IMG/VR virus record: IMGVR_UViG_3300021185_003853
Span: 1 to 64,000 of that record
Reading direction: 5' to 3' (one strand)
DNA length: 64,000 bases
Source of the DNA: a virus
Shown here: one piece after another, positions 27,268 through 36,133 of the stretch
Layout of the letters: every line of letters starts with the position of its first letter
Position numbering within the stretch: position 1 is the stretch's first letter
Program-made: the position numbers and the translations under genes
The notes under the pieces: model-generated
Told to the model about the DNA's origin: nothing
What the model saw: only the letters and a program-made list of their open reading frames with translations
Database searches by the model: none

Positions 27268-27594
27268 ATGAAACAACTAGCGACTATACTATTAGCATCA
27301 ATTTTTTCAATGTCGGCATTTTCTGAGGCTTATGTCTCAATGAAAAACAAAGCCTCATGGATGGAAGATGAGAGCATGACATTTGATGGATCGAAAACCC
27401 ATCTAAGATTTGGATTTCAAGATAGAAGTCTTTATGCTGAAGCGGGTGTCGTAAATGGTGGAACATCTTGGGAAGCCGGATATAAATTTAAGTCATTTGC
27501 AAATGGTCTTACGCTTTCGGGTAAGGCAGAGGCGACCAATATCGATGAGTGGAACTATACTCTCGAAACACGCCTTAGATACACATTCAAATAG
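27268..27594 (+). CDS. secreted small outer-membrane beta-barrel-like protein
   Basis: Signal peptide (..SMSAFS), alternating beta strands, C-terminal RLRYTFK. Confidence 0.6.
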   Translation: MKQLATILLASIFSMSAFSEAYVSMKNKASWMEDESMTFDGSKTHLRFGFQDRSLYAEAGVVNGGTSWEAGYKFKSFANGLTLSGKAEATNIDEWNYTLETRLRYTFK

Positions 27595-27597
27595 AAA

Positions 27598-27620
27598 GAG
27601 CCCCTTAATTGGGGCTTTTT
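27598..27620 (+). terminator. Rho-independent terminator
   Basis: GAGCCCC-TTAATT-GGGGCTT-TTT. Confidence 0.8.
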
Positions 27621-27711
27621 CATATCAGTCTCAATAATCTCGCAAAATAATTTCTAGTCTTCAGTGTTTTAAACTACTAAATACTATATAATAATAGTAT
27701 TGAGGTAGGTT

Positions 27712-27990
27712 ATGGAAATATTGACACTTATTGCCGATGTAGGATTTCCTATTGCATCGGCTCTTGCAGGTGGATTTTTCGTGTTTGTTACACTCAAGTT
27801 TATCTTGAATGGTGTGCTTAGTGACATTTGTACACAAAGGGGCTTTGTAAAAGCACTAGATAATAGAGTGAAAACAATGAATAACGAGGTCGTGAGAATC
27901 GATCTTCAGATGTGTCATGCTTTTGGAGTTGAACCAGACTTAACAGTCGTAGCGAGGGCAGACGGACAGCAAGACGCAAGAAAGGATTAG
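27712..27990 (+). CDS. single-pass membrane coiled-coil protein A
   Basis: DVGFPI + TM + LDNRVKTMNNEVVRID. Confidence 0.75.
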   Translation: MEILTLIADVGFPIASALAGGFFVFVTLKFILNGVLSDICTQRGFVKALDNRVKTMNNEVVRIDLQMCHAFGVEPDLTVVARADGQQDARKD

Positions 27991-27993
27991 ATT

Positions 27994-28290
27994 ATGGAAG
28001 AATTAGATATAGGAGCAATGATCTCACAGTACGGCTTTCCAATTATAGCCGCTGTTGGATTAGGATACTTCATATATTACATATGGAGTTGGGTTACTGA
28101 AGAAGTAGACCCAGTGATATCAGAGTCTCATATGACTCTCATAGCACTAATTGACAGAATAAGAATGTTAGATAATGATTTGATAAGACTGAGAACTAAA
28201 CTAGATATGATTTTACAGCAACAGGAAATGATGAAGAATGAAAAAGATAATAACTCTGATACTACTATCGATATCACTGACGAGTCATAG
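27994..28290 (+). CDS. single-pass membrane coiled-coil protein B (paralogue of A)
   Basis: QYGFPI + TM + LIDRIRMLDNDLIRL. Confidence 0.75.
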   Translation: MEELDIGAMISQYGFPIIAAVGLGYFIYYIWSWVTEEVDPVISESHMTLIALIDRIRMLDNDLIRLRTKLDMILQQQEMMKNEKDNNSDTTIDITDES

Positions 28291-28732
28291 TAGCGAAATA
28301 ACTTTCGGATTCAAAAGCCCATCATTTAGTGGTGTTGGCACTGGTTCGCATTATCTTACGATTGAGAACCAAGAACATAGTCGAAAGAAATCAATCGAAG
28401 ATGCACTCGAAGCGGCTCGTAAAGCGGCTGAAAGAGAAGCAGAAAACACCACACTCGCTAAGTTCATTCGTAACCTAGAGAGTCGTATCTATTCACAGTT
28501 GTCAAAGCAACTTGTGGACAATATGTTTAGTAACGAAGATGCAGTCACATTCGGGTCATTTACACTTGAAGGGTCTACAGTTGCCTATCAGGTTATGACG
28601 AATGATGCAGGCGAAGATTATATCGAGATGAGAATTGTAGATACAGAAGGTTCAGAAACTATTATTGAAATACCAATTGGTACTGGTAACTTTGGTTCAA
28701 TAGATAGCGGGGAAGATGATGTTGCGTTTTAG
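28238..28732 (+). CDS. csgF: curli assembly protein CsgF-like
   Basis: Signal peptide then EITFGFKSPSFSG (cf. CsgF FQFRNPNFGG); FIRNLESRIYSQLSKQL; adjacent to csgG. Confidence 0.8.
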   Translation: MKKIITLILLSISLTSHSSEITFGFKSPSFSGVGTGSHYLTIENQEHSRKKSIEDALEAARKAAEREAENTTLAKFIRNLESRIYSQLSKQLVDNMFSNEDAVTFGSFTLEGSTVAYQVMTNDAGEDYIEMRIVDTEGSETIIEIPIGTGNFGSIDSGEDDVAF

Positions 28733-29621
28733 TTTACTACTAGCGGTATCTATTATCACTGGGTGCGCTCAGATTCCAAAATGGTCTGAGAATCCACAGG
28801 ATTGCTCACATCTGAAAAATGCTAGGGACTATATCTGTGTAGACGAACCAGAAGTGGTTGATATGCCCGCATATGTAAAATTACTTGAAGTTCCACCTGC
28901 TACCAAAATGCCAGTTGTAGCAGTATATGGATTCAGAGACTTAACAGGTCAAAGAAAGAATAGAGACGGAATTGCAGATTTTAGTACTGCTGTCACACAA
29001 GGCGGTACTGAAATGCTAATAGATGCACTCAAAACAGCAGGGAAAGGGACTTGGTTTCGTGTTGTGGAGAGACAGGGTATCGACAATCTAGTAAGAGAAA
29101 GACAGATTGTTAGATCAACCCGAAAAGAATACGCTGACGAAAAATCTCAAGGGTTAGGACCTTTGTTATTTGCAGGTATGATTATCGAAGGCGGTATAAT
29201 TGGTTATGATACAAATCTTCAATCAGGTGGTAGAGGTGCTAGAGCATTAGGTATTGCGCTTTCAAGGCAATATCGTAAAGATGTCGTGACTGTTTCTGTG
29301 AGGGCTGTCTCAGTCCTGACAGGAGAAGTTCTGCTCAATGTTCAAGCAAAGAAGAGTATTCTTAGTTATGGGTCGGGTGGTGATTTATTCCGATTCTACG
29401 AAGAAGGAACTAAGCTAGTTGAATATGAAGATGGTGTGGGAAATAATGAGTCAGTGACTTATGCGGTACGGACAGCCATTGAGGCAGCCGTGCTTGAACT
29501 AATATATCAGGGACATGATAGAAGTCTCTGGTCAGTAGGTGAAGGTCATCGTCATCCTCATTTGAATGATGGAACGAATGATGGTCATAGCCTAGAAGAA
29601 GAGGTAAAGGAAGATGAATAG
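28716..29621 (+). CDS. csgG: curli secretion channel CsgG-like lipoprotein
   Basis: Lipobox ITGC; VAVYGFRDLTGQRK, FSTAVTQG, WFRVVER, LVRERQIVR, EGGIIGYD, NESVTYAVRTAIEAAV. Confidence 0.93.
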   Translation: MMLRFSLLLAVSIITGCAQIPKWSENPQDCSHLKNARDYICVDEPEVVDMPAYVKLLEVPPATKMPVVAVYGFRDLTGQRKNRDGIADFSTAVTQGGTEMLIDALKTAGKGTWFRVVERQGIDNLVRERQIVRSTRKEYADEKSQGLGPLLFAGMIIEGGIIGYDTNLQSGGRGARALGIALSRQYRKDVVTVSVRAVSVLTGEVLLNVQAKKSILSYGSGGDLFRFYEEGTKLVEYEDGVGNNESVTYAVRTAIEAAVLELIYQGHDRSLWSVGEGHRHPHLNDGTNDGHSLEEEVKEDE

Positions 29622-30339
29622 GTACTTAATAGGACTAGTAGCATTGCTTTCTAGTTTCGTTTATGCTGGCGCATCTGATGATAACGAAATCAACATCGAA
29701 CAATCTGGTGATACATTTACATTGTATATCGATCAGGTAGGTTATGGTAACAAAGTAGGACTTGATAATTTTGAAACATCGTCAAGTGCTTCGCCTATAA
29801 CTGGTTCATCGTTGAATTTCGATATTGATCAAATTGGTAACGAGAACTTATTGTTCGGTGAAGTAACTGCCGATAGTTCAACTTACAATCTGATCTGGAC
29901 TGGTGATTCTAACTCATGGGATTGGATGATTGGCGATGTAGGTTCTGCTGATTCGACAAACATTGATGTTAGCATAACTGGTGACTCCAACACAATGGAT
30001 TTTGATCAGGGTTCTGTAGCAAGTGCAGAAAGACTTGATCTTGATTTAACTGTGATTGGCAGTAGCAATGTATTTGATGTAGATGTTGAAACAGATGATG
30101 TAACATTCACAGTTGATGTTACTGGTGATGGCAACAACATCAATACACTACAGAACGATGGATTCTACCAAACATTAACTCTTGACCTAACTGGAGACAA
30201 TGCTGATGTTGATATTAATCAACTTAGTGGTACTTGTCCACAGGGTGTTACTAGTTGTAAAGGTATAATTACATTAGATGTTACTTCTGAAAATGCTACT
30301 ATCCAGATTAACCAGAAAGATAACGCAGGCGACAGTTAA
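29614..30339 (+). CDS. curlin-like beta-repeat secreted protein 1
   Basis: Signal peptide; repeated (Q/T)xGxxN units (IDQVGYGN, IDQIGNEN, TGDSN twice, IGSSN, TGDGN); C-terminal Cys pair. Confidence 0.75.
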   Translation: MNRYLIGLVALLSSFVYAGASDDNEINIEQSGDTFTLYIDQVGYGNKVGLDNFETSSSASPITGSSLNFDIDQIGNENLLFGEVTADSSTYNLIWTGDSNSWDWMIGDVGSADSTNIDVSITGDSNTMDFDQGSVASAERLDLDLTVIGSSNVFDVDVETDDVTFTVDVTGDGNNINTLQNDGFYQTLTLDLTGDNADVDINQLSGTCPQGVTSCKGIITLDVTSENATIQINQKDNAGDS

Positions 30340-31435
30340 TGCATTGCTACTAGTGGGAGTTGCCGCTCAAGGCGCTTCCATTGGTGGTATTGTAGAGTCA
30401 ACTGGAGTCGGTTCTCTTGAACGAGAGACATCAGATACAGTAGTTGCGACTGTGGGCGAGGAGATTCAACTCAACGATACCGCTCAAACTGCAAAAGGTA
30501 GAATGCTAATCAAGTTCCTTGATGAGGCAGAACTATCTCTAATCGAACATACCAAAGTCTATATCGACAAAGTTTACTACGACCCGGATCCCTCCAAATC
30601 CAAAATGGTCATGAAGATGGCTTTAGGCACCGCTAGGTTTGCCTCTGGGCGTCTTGGAATGGTGAACAAATCAAATATAGACATATCAACACCAACGGCA
30701 ACGATTGCTGTTCGTGGCACAGATTTCACAACGACTATTGATGAACTTGGTAGATCATTAGTCATTCTATTACCAGATGAAAATGGTGACCCGTCTGGTG
30801 AGATCATCGTATCAAACGAAGCGGGTTCAGTGACACTCACTGAAGCATATGCCGCAACAATGGTTTCGAGTGTATCAACAATGCCTACTCAAAAAGTAAT
30901 CATAAATAACATCACGCCTGCGCTTATAGACAATATGTTTATCGTCAACGCACCACAAGAGGTAAGACAGGCAATTGAAGAGCAGATTCAAGAAGACGAT
31001 AATTTGGACATGGGTTCATTAGATGCTGACTTCCTAGAGTTTGATGAGTTAGAAAAGGATTTTGATGACTATGCAGGTGGAGAAGTTTACACCAGATTAG
31101 ATTATGATTTTCTAGGGTCTAATCTATTAACTGACTTGCTTGATGTGATCGATGAATTAATCCGCACAATGGCACAACTCGAAGATGTACAAGAGGGAGC
31201 AGGTAATACAGCAATACGACTGACTGGTGCTAAATGGGGATTCAATGATGATAGTCAGTACGCCATATTTGAAGAAGATGGTGGTATCGTATTTCATCGT
31301 GATGTTAGAGGTGTTATCAGTTTGAAGTTTGCTAAAGGTGGAGCAATAACTGTAGTGACAGAAGTCGAAGGTTATGTAGGCGAAATCACTGCTGACGGCG
31401 GAGAAGACATCAACGTCTTTATTAAACAGGATTAA
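30278..31435 (+). CDS. FecR-domain periplasmic protein
   Basis: Hydrophobic N-terminus; DTAQTAKGRMLIKFLD...LIEHTKVYID; ISTPTATIAVRGTDF; start uncertain. Confidence 0.85.
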   Translation: MLLLKMLLSRLTRKITQATVNALLLVGVAAQGASIGGIVESTGVGSLERETSDTVVATVGEEIQLNDTAQTAKGRMLIKFLDEAELSLIEHTKVYIDKVYYDPDPSKSKMVMKMALGTARFASGRLGMVNKSNIDISTPTATIAVRGTDFTTTIDELGRSLVILLPDENGDPSGEIIVSNEAGSVTLTEAYAATMVSSVSTMPTQKVIINNITPALIDNMFIVNAPQEVRQAIEEQIQEDDNLDMGSLDADFLEFDELEKDFDDYAGGEVYTRLDYDFLGSNLLTDLLDVIDELIRTMAQLEDVQEGAGNTAIRLTGAKWGFNDDSQYAIFEEDGGIVFHRDVRGVISLKFAKGGAITVVTEVEGYVGEITADGGEDINVFIKQD

Positions 31436-31436
31436 T

Positions 31437-32150
31437 ATGAAGGACATAGAAGAATACTTGTTATACGTTATTACTCCAATTCTTTTATTGGTGTATATGT
31501 TTGCCTCGGGTAAAGCAAAAGCAGACAACGAAATCTTTATCGATCAATCAGGCAATAACTTTGCGATTGGTGTTGAACAAATAGGCGCTAACAACAACGC
31601 AACAGTCAACGCTGATGGAACAACTCAACAACTACTTATTGTTCAATATAATGACACTACAGTAGATAATGATGTAACAGTCAATACTACAGGTGCTGAC
31701 AATGGTATCAAACTATGTCAAGGGTGTGCCTTTGATTATCCAGAAAGTTACACCAATCACGACTATTGGTACGATAACCTGGAAGGTGGCGGTCACTCAA
31801 TCGATGTGACTGTTACTGGAGATAGAAATGGTATCTCTGCTCAACAAACAAATCAAGGCAGTACAAACGGTCACAGTTACGATCTAAATTTAACTGGAGA
31901 CGATAACGAAGTTACGACCATTCAACAGCACGATGGTGTTAAGACTATAGACCTTACAATCTACAATGATGACAACGATGTGTTTGTTCGTCAGAAAGGG
32001 GCAGGTTCAACTCATACTGCTACGATAGAACTTGACGGCACATATGGCACTGACCTGACACTCAAACAATTCAATTCAACAGCAACTTACTCACTCACGC
32101 AAAATTGTGTCACTGTTGGTGGTTGCTCTATCTCGGTGACTCAACAATGA
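31437..32150 (+). CDS. curlin-like beta-repeat secreted protein 2
   Basis: Signal peptide (AKA-DNEIFIDQSGNN), EQIGANN, TGADN, TGDRN, TGDDN repeats; C-terminal CVTVGGC. Confidence 0.75.
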   Translation: MKDIEEYLLYVITPILLLVYMFASGKAKADNEIFIDQSGNNFAIGVEQIGANNNATVNADGTTQQLLIVQYNDTTVDNDVTVNTTGADNGIKLCQGCAFDYPESYTNHDYWYDNLEGGGHSIDVTVTGDRNGISAQQTNQGSTNGHSYDLNLTGDDNEVTTIQQHDGVKTIDLTIYNDDNDVFVRQKGAGSTHTATIELDGTYGTDLTLKQFNSTATYSLTQNCVTVGGCSISVTQQ

Positions 32151-34174
32151 CAAAGTGGTGGTCAGTTCTTCCAATTATTTTCATATTTTGTGCATTAAAA
32201 GTCACAGAATCCTACTTTGTAAAATCGATAGAATATACATACTACGACCAGTTGCAACGTGGCCATCAAACTACTAAAGTGAATGACATTGTACTGGTAA
32301 ACATAGATGAAAATGCAATTAAAAAGGAAGGACAATACCCTTGGCCAAGACAGACAGTCGCCAAATACATAAACAATGCACCGATCAACTCACTGCTAGT
32401 CTCCACTATGATCTGGTCAGAGCCAGATCGCTTTGCAGGGGACAAGGAACTATCAAGATCCCTAAGTCAAAAAGCATTGGTATTAGCAAGCGCCCCTACT
32501 CGCCAAACTACTACAACTGAGTTAGGGATATATGCCAATGTTTCGACATTCGGCAAACCGACAAGTACGCTGATTAACTACAGTGGGTTATTGACACCCA
32601 TACAAGATCTCGCACAATATGCAATGGGAGTCGGCGCTGTGTCTGCTGAAGTCGATCAACCTTCAGGCGTTCTACGTAGAGTCCCATTAATCGTTAGCAT
32701 TAATGGACAACCTTATCCTTCATTAGGACTTGATACTGTTCGTGTATTTTTAGGTGAACCATCATATACTATTAAGAACAATGAACTCGGAGTGGAGTGG
32801 ATTCGTTTAGGTAAACAAGATCCTATTACAACCCAACCGACATCTGAACTGCCTGTTGCATTCTGGCATGACTTCGAACAGATATCTATTCTTGATCCAA
32901 TGCCTGAGGGTAAGGTATTGATCTTCGGGGTGACTGCAGAAGGATATTCGAATCCTGTTCCGACACCAACAGGTCCTATGTATCCTCATGAGATTCAAGC
33001 ACAACAAATCTACACGCTGATGTCTGGTGTCGAGATACTACGACCCGACTATACAAGATTCCTCGAACTATTGATGATCCTTATTGCTTGTACGGGCATA
33101 CTAATCGCAGTTTATCGCTTGGGTACGATTGGTGCGTGTATCACAAGCATTGCATTGTTGGGTGCATCACCAGCGATAGGATATTATGCATGGACAAATA
33201 GTTACTTCTTCCTTGATATTATCTGGCCAACAGTTGCCGGGGTGGTCGTATTCGCACAAAGTTCATTCAACAAATACTACACGACTTACAAACTCAAAGA
33301 ACAAATCAAGAAACAATTTGGGACATACTTATCTCCTGCTATGGTGCAAAAATTACAAGATGATCCGTCATTGTTAAGGTTGGGTGGTGAGACAAGAAAT
33401 ATGACATTCCTGTTCTGTGACATTCGTGGATTCACTCCAATATCAGAACAATACAAAACAAACCCACAAGGATTGACGGAACTCGTCAATCGATTCCTGA
33501 CACCGATGACAGACATTATTATGGACAACGAAGGAACCATTGATAAGTACATGGGTGACTGCATTATGGCGTTTTGGAATGCCCCCTTAGACGTGCAGTA
33601 TCAGGAGTATATGGCGGTTAAAACGAGTGTAGAGATGTATCAGCACCTTGACATACTCAACGCAGAACTCGAAAGCGAAGGGTTATTGCCCATTAATATC
33701 GGTGTTGGTATCAATACAGGTGAAGTTGTTGTGGGTAATATGGGGTCAAATCAACGCTTTGATTACTCTGTATTGGGTGATGCTGTAAACCTAGCGGCAC
33801 GATTAGAAGGACAAACAAAGTCATATGGTGTCAAAACACTTATAGGTGAGGACACTAAAACACAGCTCAACGAACAATACTTTACTCTTGAGTTAGATAA
33901 TCTTGCTGTTAAGGGTAAGACAGAACCTGTTAAGATATACACTGTATTGACTGAAGCAATAGATGTTGAGATAGAAATGCATGAAGAGATGATGAGAGCA
34001 TATTACGCAAAACAATTCGATCAAGCGATAGCATTCTGTGAGGATCTAAAGAGATGCTTCAAAGGTGAAATTGCTGATTATTACAGAATGTGGCAAGACA
34101 GATGTAGGTCGCTAGAAAACACTCTAGACAAGGGTGAAGCGTGGGACGGCGTGTATCGAGCAACATCTAAATAA
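32147..34174 (+). CDS. CHASE2-domain class III adenylate cyclase
   Basis: IVLVNIDE..I...GQYPWPR (CHASE2), three TMs, FCDIRGFT, IDKYMGDCIMAFW, FDYSVLGDAVNLAARLEG; start ATG 32147. Confidence 0.93.
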   Translation: MTKWWSVLPIIFIFCALKVTESYFVKSIEYTYYDQLQRGHQTTKVNDIVLVNIDENAIKKEGQYPWPRQTVAKYINNAPINSLLVSTMIWSEPDRFAGDKELSRSLSQKALVLASAPTRQTTTTELGIYANVSTFGKPTSTLINYSGLLTPIQDLAQYAMGVGAVSAEVDQPSGVLRRVPLIVSINGQPYPSLGLDTVRVFLGEPSYTIKNNELGVEWIRLGKQDPITTQPTSELPVAFWHDFEQISILDPMPEGKVLIFGVTAEGYSNPVPTPTGPMYPHEIQAQQIYTLMSGVEILRPDYTRFLELLMILIACTGILIAVYRLGTIGACITSIALLGASPAIGYYAWTNSYFFLDIIWPTVAGVVVFAQSSFNKYYTTYKLKEQIKKQFGTYLSPAMVQKLQDDPSLLRLGGETRNMTFLFCDIRGFTPISEQYKTNPQGLTELVNRFLTPMTDIIMDNEGTIDKYMGDCIMAFWNAPLDVQYQEYMAVKTSVEMYQHLDILNAELESEGLLPINIGVGINTGEVVVGNMGSNQRFDYSVLGDAVNLAARLEGQTKSYGVKTLIGEDTKTQLNEQYFTLELDNLAVKGKTEPVKIYTVLTEAIDVEIEMHEEMMRAYYAKQFDQAIAFCEDLKRCFKGEIADYYRMWQDRCRSLENTLDKGEAWDGVYRATSK

Positions 34175-34234
34175 CACGACAAATATGACATATTGTACTT
34201 GAATTAAGGCATTACATGACAAATATGACGTATT
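34174..34234 (+). repeat. 21-bp direct repeat pair (possible operator)
   Basis: ACACGACAAATATGACATATT (34174) and ACATGACAAATATGACGTATT (34214). Confidence 0.7.
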
Positions 34235-34253: not shown

Positions 34254-34282
34254 TTGACATATACCTCAATTTGATGTATAAT
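34254..34282 (+). promoter_or_regulatory. sigma70-type promoter
   Basis: TTGACA-N17-TATAAT. Confidence 0.8.
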
Positions 34283-34311: not shown

Positions 34312-34902
34312 ATGAAATCTAAGTTGAAAGCTGCGCAGTTGATTATCGGTATTCTAGCGTTATTATTTATCTCTATTATTGTATTGATGTATCCTGTTAA
34401 ACACAATCAAGAGTTTTATGCTATTGAACAGGTTACAGTGCCTGAACAAAGCAAGCATCTTACACTTGATAATATTGAATGTATGGCACTAAACATCTAC
34501 CATGAATCACGAAATCAAACTCTAGGCGGACGACTTGCCGTAGGTTATGTTACTTTAAATCGTGTTAAGAGTAATAAGTATCCTGACACTATTTGCGGTG
34601 TCGTGAAACAAGCAAAAATAAACAAATGGTTCCTCGAAAGACACAACAAAAAAGTTCCCTCTAGAAACAAGTGTCAATTTTCTTGGTATTGCGATGGTAA
34701 GTCAGATCAACCATTAGAATCAAACGCATGGGAGGAAGCATATCTACTTGCTATCCATGTTATAAATATGTACGATACTATATCAGATCCCACAAAAGGT
34801 TCGATCATGTATCACAGCAATAAAGTGAAACCTTACTGGACAGATGCTTATAAACATCTTGTCACAATTGATGACCACATTTTTTATGGGAGTGTGAAAT
34901 GA
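34312..34902 (+). CDS. SleB-like cell wall hydrolase (Hydrolase_2), membrane-anchored
   Basis: CMALNIYHESR, VTLNRV, YPDTICGVV, CQFSWYCDG, IDDHIFY. Confidence 0.9.
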   Translation: MKSKLKAAQLIIGILALLFISIIVLMYPVKHNQEFYAIEQVTVPEQSKHLTLDNIECMALNIYHESRNQTLGGRLAVGYVTLNRVKSNKYPDTICGVVKQAKINKWFLERHNKKVPSRNKCQFSWYCDGKSDQPLESNAWEEAYLLAIHVINMYDTISDPTKGSIMYHSNKVKPYWTDAYKHLVTIDDHIFYGSVK

Positions 34903-35450
34903 GTTTAAAAGAGTTAACTTGGGAAAATCACAAGTCGGCAGAACGCAAAAAGTTTGCTAGTATTCTAATGAGTGGTGATATAGATCCCTTGTTATATTAC
35001 AGATTTTTATGTAATCAATACTACATGTATATCATGTTAGAAGAAAATTTAAGAATGGCAGGATTCCCACCTAAGTTATGGGACATATTCAGAGCGCCAA
35101 AAATCCTTGAGGATATGGTCGAACTACAAGACGAATATGGATTCATATTTAAACCAAAAGCAGTATATCCACTCACACACAAATACTCGGCACACGTTGA
35201 GACATTGTTCCGTGAAAGACGATACGATGATTTGATTGCTCATATGTATGTTCGTCACTTTGGTGATATGTACGGCGGTGCGATGATTGCTAAGAAGGTT
35301 CCGGGTTCAGGTAAGATGTATGAGTTCGAGAACAAAGAAGAATTAAAAGTGCATCTACGTGAAATGCTTAACGATGATATGGGACCTGAAGCAAATGTAT
35401 GTTTCGAGTACGCAATTGCATTGTTTGAGGAGTTAGGCAAGGAATCATGA
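34899..35450 (+). CDS. hemO: heme oxygenase
   Basis: LKELTWENHKSAE (proximal His), AHMYVRHFGDMYGG, EANVCFEY. Confidence 0.9.
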   Translation: MSLKELTWENHKSAERKKFASILMSGDIDPLLYYRFLCNQYYMYIMLEENLRMAGFPPKLWDIFRAPKILEDMVELQDEYGFIFKPKAVYPLTHKYSAHVETLFRERRYDDLIAHMYVRHFGDMYGGAMIAKKVPGSGKMYEFENKEELKVHLREMLNDDMGPEANVCFEYAIALFEELGKES

Positions 35451-36133
35451 GTTATGTTTGGGATTCGTTAGTCGATCTGCAGAATCATTTTATTGAGACA
35501 TTTGACTCAGTAGCAAAAGAATACAAAGAGTCAGGCATGGAACGATACAACCATGAAGGTTGGATTAATCGTGTATGGAGCAATGATGACTTTAGACGAG
35601 CGCATGTTGATGTTGTCGATGCCCGTGAGGAGAAAGGATTGTGGATGATGCATGTATGCGTATTCCCGCATCTAAGTTCAAACGCTCCTATCTATGGGTT
35701 TGATGTGATTGCTGGACATAAGTTGATGACTGGTGCATTTCATGACTATAGTCCTACAACACAAAAAGATCACCCAATGATTGATTATTTCAATGAACAG
35801 GTTGAACCCTTACAATGGAAACGTGAACGTGATTTGCCGCCTTGGGCGAAAGCAATCTTTAGTGACAAGATGATGGCGGCAAGTGCTGTTAAAGAGCATT
35901 CAGAGATCGATCAAGTTGTATCGACAGCAAAGAATACACTTGATTACTTTGTAAATAATGTGGGACAGTATAATCAAACTTCGAGGCGTAACCCGGTTGT
36001 GTTTGCTCAAAACAACTATGCGCATCACCAAAAACAAAATCCTCACACTCCCCGAGTGATGAAGACCCTAGGATTAAATTCAGACGATGTTGATTCGTTT
36101 ATTAAGAAGTGTTTGTTTCCAGAAGTGAAGTGA
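35447..36133 (+). CDS. pcyX: ferredoxin-dependent bilin reductase (PcyX type)
   Basis: FRRAHVDVVD, MMHVCVFP, PIYGFDVI, AFHDYSP, LPPWAKAIFS, QKQNPHT; ATGA-coupled to hemO. Confidence 0.8.
   Translation: MSYVWDSLVDLQNHFIETFDSVAKEYKESGMERYNHEGWINRVWSNDDFRRAHVDVVDAREEKGLWMMHVCVFPHLSSNAPIYGFDVIAGHKLMTGAFHDYSPTTQKDHPMIDYFNEQVEPLQWKRERDLPPWAKAIFSDKMMAASAVKEHSEIDQVVSTAKNTLDYFVNNVGQYNQTSRRNPVVFAQNNYAHHQKQNPHTPRVMKTLGLNSDDVDSFIKKCLFPEVK

Follow-up and report, generated by a model that had tools for sequence, protein, structure and literature searches.

Introduction

Which function does a phage operon serve that joins a curli-type secretion channel to a receptor-type adenylate cyclase? This question is raised by a locus at positions 27712-34174 of a 64,000-nucleotide stretch of DNA (hereafter the window), i.e. 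positions 1 to 64,000 of the IMG/VR virus record IMGVR_UViG_3300021185_003853 (114 kb, 67% complete), which stems from an uncultured marine T4-like phage. Here, eight plus-strand open reading frames (ORFs), bounded by a hairpin terminator on the 5' side and a sigma-70 promoter on the 3' side, encode two small membrane proteins, a CsgF-like protein, a CsgG lipoprotein, two curlin-like proteins, an exported FecR-domain protein and a CHASE2 class III adenylate cyclase. In an interpretation to which we give about an even chance of being correct, this cassette would be a late operon that provides a curli-type pore and two exported fibre-like proteins, and that turns an envelope cue into cyclic AMP (cAMP) via a FecR-CHASE2 sensor pair.

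Parts of such a module have been described before. The genes csgF and csgG were found in pelagimyophages together with three unnamed genes (Zaragoza-Solas et al. 2020, PMC7029224), and the CsgG and CsgF proteins of phage Melnitz were modelled and a role in lysis was proposed (Buchholz et al. 2022, PMC9004378). For SAR11 podo- and myoviruses, a module has been described in which one or two "histidine kinase" genes precede those for CsgF, CsgG, CsgA/B and FecR; in many cases another CsgA/B gene follows, and an adenylate cyclase gene completes the set (Wittmers et al. 2022, PMC9599517). Hereby, FecR, the histidine kinase and the cyclase were recognized as foreign to bacterial curli operons, the viral module was found world-wide with transcripts, and transfer between virus families was argued for. 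CHASE2 is not mentioned in that study, and FecR is taken as an iron-related regulator. According to the literature the viral module is present at all 65 GOV2.0 stations. A preliminary description of the window had pointed to a prior report of csgF and csgG in marine SAR11 myophages; this prior report stands, while the extent of what was known had been underestimated, as FecR and the cyclase are published as well (PMC9599517). The composition of the cassette is already published, and the window holds a full-length copy, in the myovirus arrangement, of the viral type VIII secretion system (T8SS, curli) module. Added here are a FecR protein that is not an anti-sigma factor, the bacterial FecR-CHASE2 pairing, small proteins without a kinase, and a late promoter in the relatives.

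Results and Discussion

The cassette and its borders consist of the following features (positions refer to the window).

27599..27616, no strand assigned: GC-rich hairpin with a T-run on the plus strand; ends the upstream outer-membrane-protein-like gene and forms the 5' border of the cassette
27676..27683, plus strand: ACTAAATA, a variant of the T4-type late-promoter motif, located 36 nt ahead of the first gene
27712..27990, plus strand: small membrane protein 1, 92 aa (phrog_18771, E 1.4e-24; hydropathy)
27994..28290, plus strand: small membrane protein 2, 98 aa (phrog_18771, E 1.5e-30)
28238..28732, plus strand: CsgF-like protein with signal peptide (PF10614, E 5.8e-15, 56 bits; phrog_35372)
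28716..29621, plus strand: CsgG lipoprotein, outer-membrane curli channel (PF03783, E 9.3e-52, 175.8 bits; lipobox ITGC)
29614..30339, plus strand: curlin-like protein 1 (weak NCBIfam CsgA/CsgB matches; AlphaFold2 beta-solenoid model)
30293..31435 (30278 in the ORF list), plus strand: exported FecR-domain protein (PF04773, E 3.8e-7; phrog_37870)
31437..32150, plus strand: curlin-like protein 2 with signal peptide (weak Curlin_rpt and NCBIfam CsgB matches)
32147..34174 (32105 in the ORF list), plus strand: CHASE2 class III adenylate cyclase (PF05226, E 2.7e-30; PF00211 Guanylate_cyc, E 1.6e-19)
34254..34282, plus strand: sigma-70-type promoter (12/12, TTGACA-17-TATAAT) of the next transcription unit (cell-wall hydrolase, heme oxygenase, bilin reductase); 3' border of the cassette

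The Pfam assignments of CsgF, CsgG, FecR, CHASE2 and the cyclase domain all exceed the curated cut-offs. The genes are tightly packed, with junctions that range from a 3-nt gap to a 53-nt overlap, and curlin-like gene 2 and the cyclase gene share an ATGA overlap at 32147-32150. The cyclase start was placed at ATG 32147, where the homologues begin, instead of the TTG at 32105 given in the ORF list. For the FecR gene, 30293 is a more probable start than 30278, since the Met encoded at 30293 is conserved in 15/15 aligned homologues. Thus, the preliminary description of eight coupled genes between a terminator and the next promoter, with an ATGA-coupled cyclase, could be reproduced in full, including all ORFs, the hairpin and the 12/12 promoter.

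A scan of IMG/VR returned 353 contigs with a close relative of CsgG, 80 of which were fetched as the nearest relatives, so that the following figures describe this clade only. The cassette is colinear in 79 of the 80 loci, the exception being a cross-hit on a truncated contig. Wherever the contig leaves room upstream (77/77 loci), both small proteins and CsgF are present, and wherever it leaves room downstream (38/38), curlin 1, FecR, curlin 2 and the cyclase follow with their order kept. The same eight-gene order is found in the phages Melnitz (OM43 host) and HTVC008M (SAR11 host), and the GenBank annotation of Melnitz lists CsgF, CsgG, a curlin-repeat protein, a FecR-domain protein, a second curlin-repeat protein and a cyclase. 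This gene order supports the notion that the eight genes form one co-inherited unit. Hereby, the co-occurrence of the FecR and cyclase genes with csgFG, proposed beforehand as a check, is borne out in the same order in all of these loci and both cultured phages, and the interleaving of the FecR gene between the curlin-like genes holds for the window and every testable relative.

As to the genome context, the phage carries the T4-type genes gp59, gp32 and T4 DsbA. Full-length matches to its gp32, ~52-54% identical, come from cyanomyophages and the Sinorhizobium phage phiN3, and megablast of the region against GenBank phages gave no match. The downstream "dsbA" was considered as a disulfide oxidoreductase and rejected, as it corresponds to the DNA-binding late regulator of T4; it therefore has no bearing on the conserved Cys pairs of the curlin-like proteins.

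Two further observations concern the relatives. In six of them (L029, L030, L049, L050, L074, L076) 0.7-1.7 kb of extra DNA, which may represent cargo genes, lies between curlin 2 and the cyclase. Several cassette contigs (L083-L089), some of 121-142 kb, are binned into metagenome-assembled genomes (MAGs) assigned to Sphingobacteriales, Synechococcus, Rhodobacterales, Planctomycetaceae and Saprospirales; they are most likely mis-binned phage DNA and provide no host evidence. A locus search of bacterial genomes with the FecR profile likewise gave only phage-like contigs binned into MAGs.

With PF10614 and PF03783 both above cut-off, the earlier assignment of a CsgF-like protein and a CsgG lipoprotein is confirmed. 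CsgG aligns over ~220 residues with the solved E. coli CsgG (E 4.6e-43), and its lipobox ITGC was read by eye in the translation. CsgF, CsgG and CsgA/B-like genes are colocated in a T4-like phage context, the combination by which a viral T8SS is recognized. As to the other curli components, CsgE (PF10627) has no match in the 114-kb phage record, while the E. coli control was detected. CsgD and CsgC did not appear in the Pfam and NCBIfam domain scans, whereby no search aimed at CsgD was made, and none of the eight cassette proteins contains a regulator domain according to Pfam. The lack of a CsgE gate in the record would suit an import channel, as suggested in PMC9599517 and PMC7029224, in which CsgG stands open for the uptake of cofactors or siderophores and FecR is a regulator of the ferric-citrate type. 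We consider this explanation highly improbable in view of the FecR protein, as detailed below.

The two proteins that would use this channel resemble each other. Both are ~240 aa long and acidic, carry a signal peptide followed by the shared mature N-terminus motif D-N-E-I-x-I-x-Q-x-G, and show periodic Q/N/D-rich repeats and, in the alignment, a conserved Cys pair near the C-terminus. Family searches gave NCBIfam CsgA/CsgB matches with E between 2.5e-6 and 7.5e-3 across both proteins, far below the cut-offs. In detail, curlin-like 1 matches CsgA with E 2.5e-6 and CsgB with E 5.4e-4, likewise far below cut-off, and has no match to Pfam Curlin_rpt, while curlin-like 2 reaches 15.4 bits for Curlin_rpt (cut-off 20.7) and E 1.1e-3 for NCBIfam CsgB. 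The AlphaFold2 model of curlin-like 1 is an all-strand solenoid with a predicted local distance difference test (pLDDT) value of 76.5. When this model was compared with 48,161 chains using VIA-align, the best matches were beta-helices of the SufD type (Z 16.8), with Pontibacter CsgA (8C50) at Z 16.2, 18% identity and a root-mean-square deviation of 8.9. Neither Foldseek of the model against the PDB (no significant match) nor hmmsearch of the curlin-like 1 profile against PDB sequences (no match) returned a relative. The label "curlin-like" for both fibre-like proteins is hence to be read as reasonable but not proven. Within the cassette, curlin-like 2 is the second most variable protein after the cyclase.

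The FecR protein is composed of a signal peptide, a conserved FecR domain, an acidic variable linker and a beta-rich C-terminal domain. Across the homologues the mean identity to the window's protein amounts to 74% for the FecR domain, 44% for the linker and 52% for the C-terminal domain, so that the FecR domain comes near to CsgG (79%). The signal-peptide-like N-terminus is conserved in 15 homologues. Unlike E. coli FecR, the protein possesses neither a cytoplasmic anti-sigma domain nor a membrane anchor, and no sigma factor of the extracytoplasmic function type (Sigma70_r2) was found in the 67% complete phage record. A role as FecR-type (iron) anti-sigma factor was rejected for these reasons, and the same points speak against the import channel, whose regulator would require such an architecture; moreover, the bacterial FecR relatives pair with CHASE2 sensors or head giant proteins and are not linked to FecA/FecI. 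Among the alternatives considered here, the import or iron-regulator explanation is the one that fits the FecR architecture worst.

The C-terminal domain was also considered as a curlin repeat, an idea that gained no support, since the profiles of the FecR and curlin-1 families, when compared with each other, gave a probability of 0.4%. The AlphaFold2 model of the whole FecR protein is poor (mean pLDDT 51, C-terminal half below 50). A predicted complex of the periplasmic CHASE2 domain (residues 26-300) with the FecR domain (residues 33-230), computed with alignments, scored 0.01 compared to a mark of 0.32, which counts neither way. In a full HMMER search for distant FecR homologues the best 150 representatives were all metagenome proteins.

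A cellular precedent for the pairing of FecR with CHASE2 is found in bacteria. The sample comprised 400 bacterial genomes of one phylum, namely that of a Rhodobacterales MAG, for which E. coli-like CsgG matches indicate Pseudomonadota. FecR-like matches occur in 139, CsgG in 108 and CHASE2 in 247 of these genomes; the CsgG count takes in the unpublished genome G387, on which no claim rests. Among the matches listed, a FecR-like gene has a CHASE2 gene within ~5 kb in at least 10 of the 400 genomes (G027, G028, G031, G078, G087, G120, G223, G265, G300 and G327), and in G261 the distance, again among the listed matches, is ~10 kb. Together with the Sinorhizobium meliloti genes cyaD1 and smc02177 (PMC5498481), this substantiates the earlier statement that bacterial CHASE2 genes sit beside FecR-domain genes.

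Four of the bacterial FecR-CHASE2 loci were annotated (L131, L134, L135, L140). One of them combines a CHASE2 cyclase with a divergent FecR gene and a pair of ShlB-type transporters; another contains a CHASE2 cyclase, a tetratricopeptide-repeat (TPR) protein, a FecR protein and a Secretin_N-like protein; and the remaining two a large Ig-like surface protein, a TPR/Slam-like protein, FecR, CHASE2 without output domain and a LapD-like protein. A ShlB-type transporter as general neighbor of the pair was discarded, as it was found in only 1 of 10 genomes checked. The bacterial FecR matches reach only profile positions ~25-235, and the C-terminal domain of the phage protein has no bacterial match. 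On this sequence evidence FecR-CHASE2 is a recurrent, putative cellular sensor pair, whose union with a curli pore occurs, among the genomes searched, only in phages.

A separate group of FecR-like domains deserves mention. The closest bacterial ones are located at residues ~110-290, in the N-terminal part of giant frames of ~4,800-7,800 aa (L094, L097, L101; G170, G102, G014), and the giant frames of L094, L097 and L101 lie directly downstream of CHAT-domain (caspase-like) genes.

The last gene of the cassette encodes the cyclase, whose topology according to hydropathy consists of a first transmembrane (TM) helix at residues ~7-25, the periplasmic CHASE2 domain, a three-TM block at ~302-370, the catalytic domain and a helical tail of ~70 aa (residues are numbered from ATG 32147). 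Its nearest solved relatives are bacterial adenylate cyclases, e.g. CyaB (3R5G, E 1.4e-34), and metagenome proteins that resemble it number in the thousands. The metal-binding residues D425 and D471, the adenine-specifying residues K467 and D545, and N548 and R552 of the NxxxR motif are present as described before, and all six are invariant in 31 distinct phage homologues. These residues suggest an active enzyme with specificity for ATP. Compared to CHASE2 (48% mean identity to the window's cyclase), the catalytic domain is better conserved within the family (61%). Apart from this, the cyclase occurs in a long form of ~675-690 aa, as in the window (tail encoded by 33950-34174), and in a short form of ~606-620 aa without tail (L010, L021, L028 and others).

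Expression of the cassette can be judged from the region upstream of the first gene. In 38 of 61 distinct related loci a canonical TATAAATA late promoter is positioned 16-41 nt upstream of the first gene, while in most of the other loci the first gene follows close behind an upstream gene. The nearest relative, L003, carries both the ACTAAATA and the TATAAATA motif upstream of the cassette. The late-promoter variant that had been proposed at 27676 is thus present where most relatives carry the canonical motif. Because of the canonical TATAAATA at the operon head in the relatives, late expression is likely for the family, and it is plausible for the window's copy.

The first two genes encode proteins with one N-terminal TM helix and a charged helical tail each, i.e. 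bitopic proteins according to hydropathy. Since both match phrog_18771, they are paralogues, as had been suggested; this PHROG has no function annotation, and no Pfam or NCBIfam family was matched. Their published designation as "histidine kinase" (PMC9599517) was rejected, since neither HisKA/DHp nor HATPase_c was detected with Pfam up to E 10 or with NCBIfam, and a His is conserved in small protein 2 only and not in its paralogue 1. Outside the related loci, the search for homologues of small protein 2 gave Melnitz and HTVC008M alone, in both cases immediately in front of csgF; the homologues of the small proteins are confined to the head of the curli cassette. The Atlas clusters nearest to small protein 2 are viral hypotheticals, one of them auto-named holin, which we treat as a lead only.

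These proteins bear on another explanation, namely that the cassette controls lysis. In this case CsgG, alone or together with CsgF, would form a gated outer-membrane pore or a trigger of the pinholin type, the small proteins would be a holin-like pair and the sensor cyclase would serve as timer. Such a role for the pore has been proposed for Melnitz (PMC9004378), and it would go along with the late promoter at the operon head in relatives, with the bitopic layout and charged tails of the small proteins, with the auto-named look-alike cluster mentioned above, and with the cell-wall hydrolase gene that follows the cassette in the window. However, a hydrolase follows the cyclase in only one related locus with room (L004) and is absent from this position in Melnitz and HTVC008M, the window's hydrolase possesses its own sigma-70-type promoter, and the small proteins match no holin family in Pfam, NCBIfam or the named PHROGs. 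Moreover, lysis control leaves the two conserved exported fibre-like proteins unexplained. Taken together, we regard it as quite unlikely.

The genes on both sides of the cassette were inspected as well. Downstream, behind the 34254 promoter, a single chain of overlapping genes (34312-36133) encodes a Hydrolase_2 cell-wall hydrolase, whose N-terminus contains a hydrophobic segment, as well as a heme oxygenase and a ferredoxin-dependent bilin reductase. Just upstream of the -35 box of this promoter, two 17-nt direct repeats (GACAAATATGAC-A/G-TATT, 16/17 identical) are located at 34178-34194 and 34218-34234, spaced 40 nt, and may constitute a regulator binding site. Directly upstream of the cassette, a gene at 27268-27594 that ends at the hairpin terminator encodes a small exported protein with a weak match, below cut-off, to Phage_OMP (a cyanophage outer-membrane beta-barrel family; E 9e-4). 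This gene is not kept beside the cassette in the relatives, save for a weak opposite-strand match in L003.

How might the parts act together? Late in infection, the curlin-like proteins would leave through CsgG/CsgF to the cell surface. The FecR-domain protein would stay in the periplasm and pair with the CHASE2 domain as a sensor, a role that is suggested by the recurrent pairing of the two in bacteria. cAMP synthesis in the infected cell would then be set by a cue from the envelope or periplasm, for which the state of the pore or the fibre is a candidate. The preliminary description had gone further, in that the fibre would sense contact with a superinfecting phage, a neighbouring cell or a grazer, signal through FecR to the cyclase and perhaps time lysis; for these steps the analysis provided no support, and they are to be read as conjecture. 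The idea of a trans-envelope cAMP sensor as such we consider plausible.

A number of points weigh against it. Some viral curli regions, mostly podoviral, lack the cyclase or the second curlin gene (PMC9599517), and the absence of the cyclase from some of them implies that the secretion part can exist without the sensor part. Among the bacterial matches listed, no CsgG gene lies within ~10 kb of a FecR-like or CHASE2 gene, save on a phage contig binned into a MAG, and five genomes with further matches beyond those listed were checked separately; the nearest case among the listed matches is a CsgG-CHASE2 distance of ~11 kb on contig C12 of G383. With no CsgG-FecR or CsgG-CHASE2 neighbourhood in the bacterial genomes searched, the proposed coupling is without a cellular model. 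In addition, the curlin assignment is built on sub-threshold sequence matches and a generic beta-solenoid fold, the window's promoter motif ACTAAATA is off consensus at two positions, and no cNMP (cyclic nucleotide)-binding protein or cAMP receptor was detected in the 114-kb record, which is 67% complete.

Some of these points favor an explanation in which one transferable block serves two functions, with curli fibres that aggregate cells ("sibling capture") or block superinfection, and with FecR and the cyclase separately reprogramming the host via cAMP, in which case neither pore nor fibre would be sensed. Both fibre roles have been proposed (PMC7029224, PMC9599517), and the explanation agrees with the viral curli regions devoid of the cyclase and, among the matches listed, with bacterial FecR-CHASE2 pairs that occur without CsgG. 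It is at odds with the gene order, as the two curlin-like genes flank the FecR gene and the second of them runs into the cyclase start, a layout retained throughout the testable relatives, and with the observation that Melnitz-infected cultures did not clump (Buchholz et al., PMC9004378). On balance, two separate functions appear unlikely to us, if by no means far-fetched.

At the other extreme, the cassette could act as a single envelope-spanning sensor without cellular counterpart, in which FecR reports the state of pore or fibre to the CHASE2 cyclase and lysis is timed in this way. Hereby, FecR would stand in for CsgE, which is missing, on the periplasmic side of CsgG; or else the acidic linker would hold FecR in the pore, with the C-terminal beta domain outside on the curlin-like fibre. 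cAMP or the two holin-like small proteins would set the time of lysis, so that marine T4-like phages would possess a system comparable in function to the lysis inhibition of T4. This proposal is speculative and its chance of being right small.

The late pore-and-fibre operon with its FecR-CHASE2 sensor pair is of interest beyond the window, because the module is carried by very abundant ocean phages and provides infected cells with a secretion system absent from their known hosts. If its FecR-CHASE2 part is an envelope sensor, it would be a rare case of a phage that brings its own receptor cyclase into the host, and would offer a tractable handle on what CHASE2 domains sense. The value of the window itself is confirmatory, in that it holds an intact, typical copy in a phage distant from the cultured carriers.

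Comparison with Known Systems

The closest known system is the T8SS of the pelagiphages HTVC008M (KC465899, 7181-13807) and Melnitz (MZ577097, 50118-56876), which consists of eight genes in the same order within a T4-like genome. The window's proteins are homologous to those of the two phages with 30-62% identity, and the phage as a whole is only distantly related to these cultured carriers. The systems differ in that the window's cassette is located upstream of gp59/gp32 and theirs downstream of gp32, and in the variant promoter motif of the window.

For the sensor part, the best-described counterpart is the CHASE2 cyclase CyaD1 of S. meliloti, which is encoded in the smc02176-78 region and adjoins the FecR-domain gene smc02177; its CHASE2 domain serves as regulatory sensor, and deletion of this domain results in constitutive cAMP production (PMC5498481). 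As in the phage, a CHASE2 class III cyclase is thus encoded beside an exported FecR-domain protein. In contrast to the phage system, CyaD1 is cellular, acts with the cAMP receptor Clr on a plant-derived signal, and has no CsgG, CsgF or curlin genes nearby. SMc02177 is dispensable for signal perception in S. meliloti (PMC5498481). A further pair is found in a Burkholderia operon that comprises a response regulator, a LysM-FecR protein and a CHASE2 histidine kinase (PMC5192318). The phage cassette shares with the bacterial FecR-CHASE2 pairs the exported FecR-domain protein beside a CHASE2 membrane receptor and, in the four annotated loci, neighbors that are outer-membrane or surface proteins. 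Unlike in the phage, the outputs of the bacterial pairs vary (cyclase, kinase, or none with a LapD-like neighbor), and no CsgG is present in the loci seen.

For the secretion part, the reference is the curli system of E. coli (csgBAC/csgDEFG), with which the phage block has in common the CsgG channel, CsgF and exported Q/N-rich repeat proteins with a beta-solenoid model. To this, and unlike E. coli curli, the phage block adds a FecR protein, a CHASE2 cyclase and two small membrane proteins.

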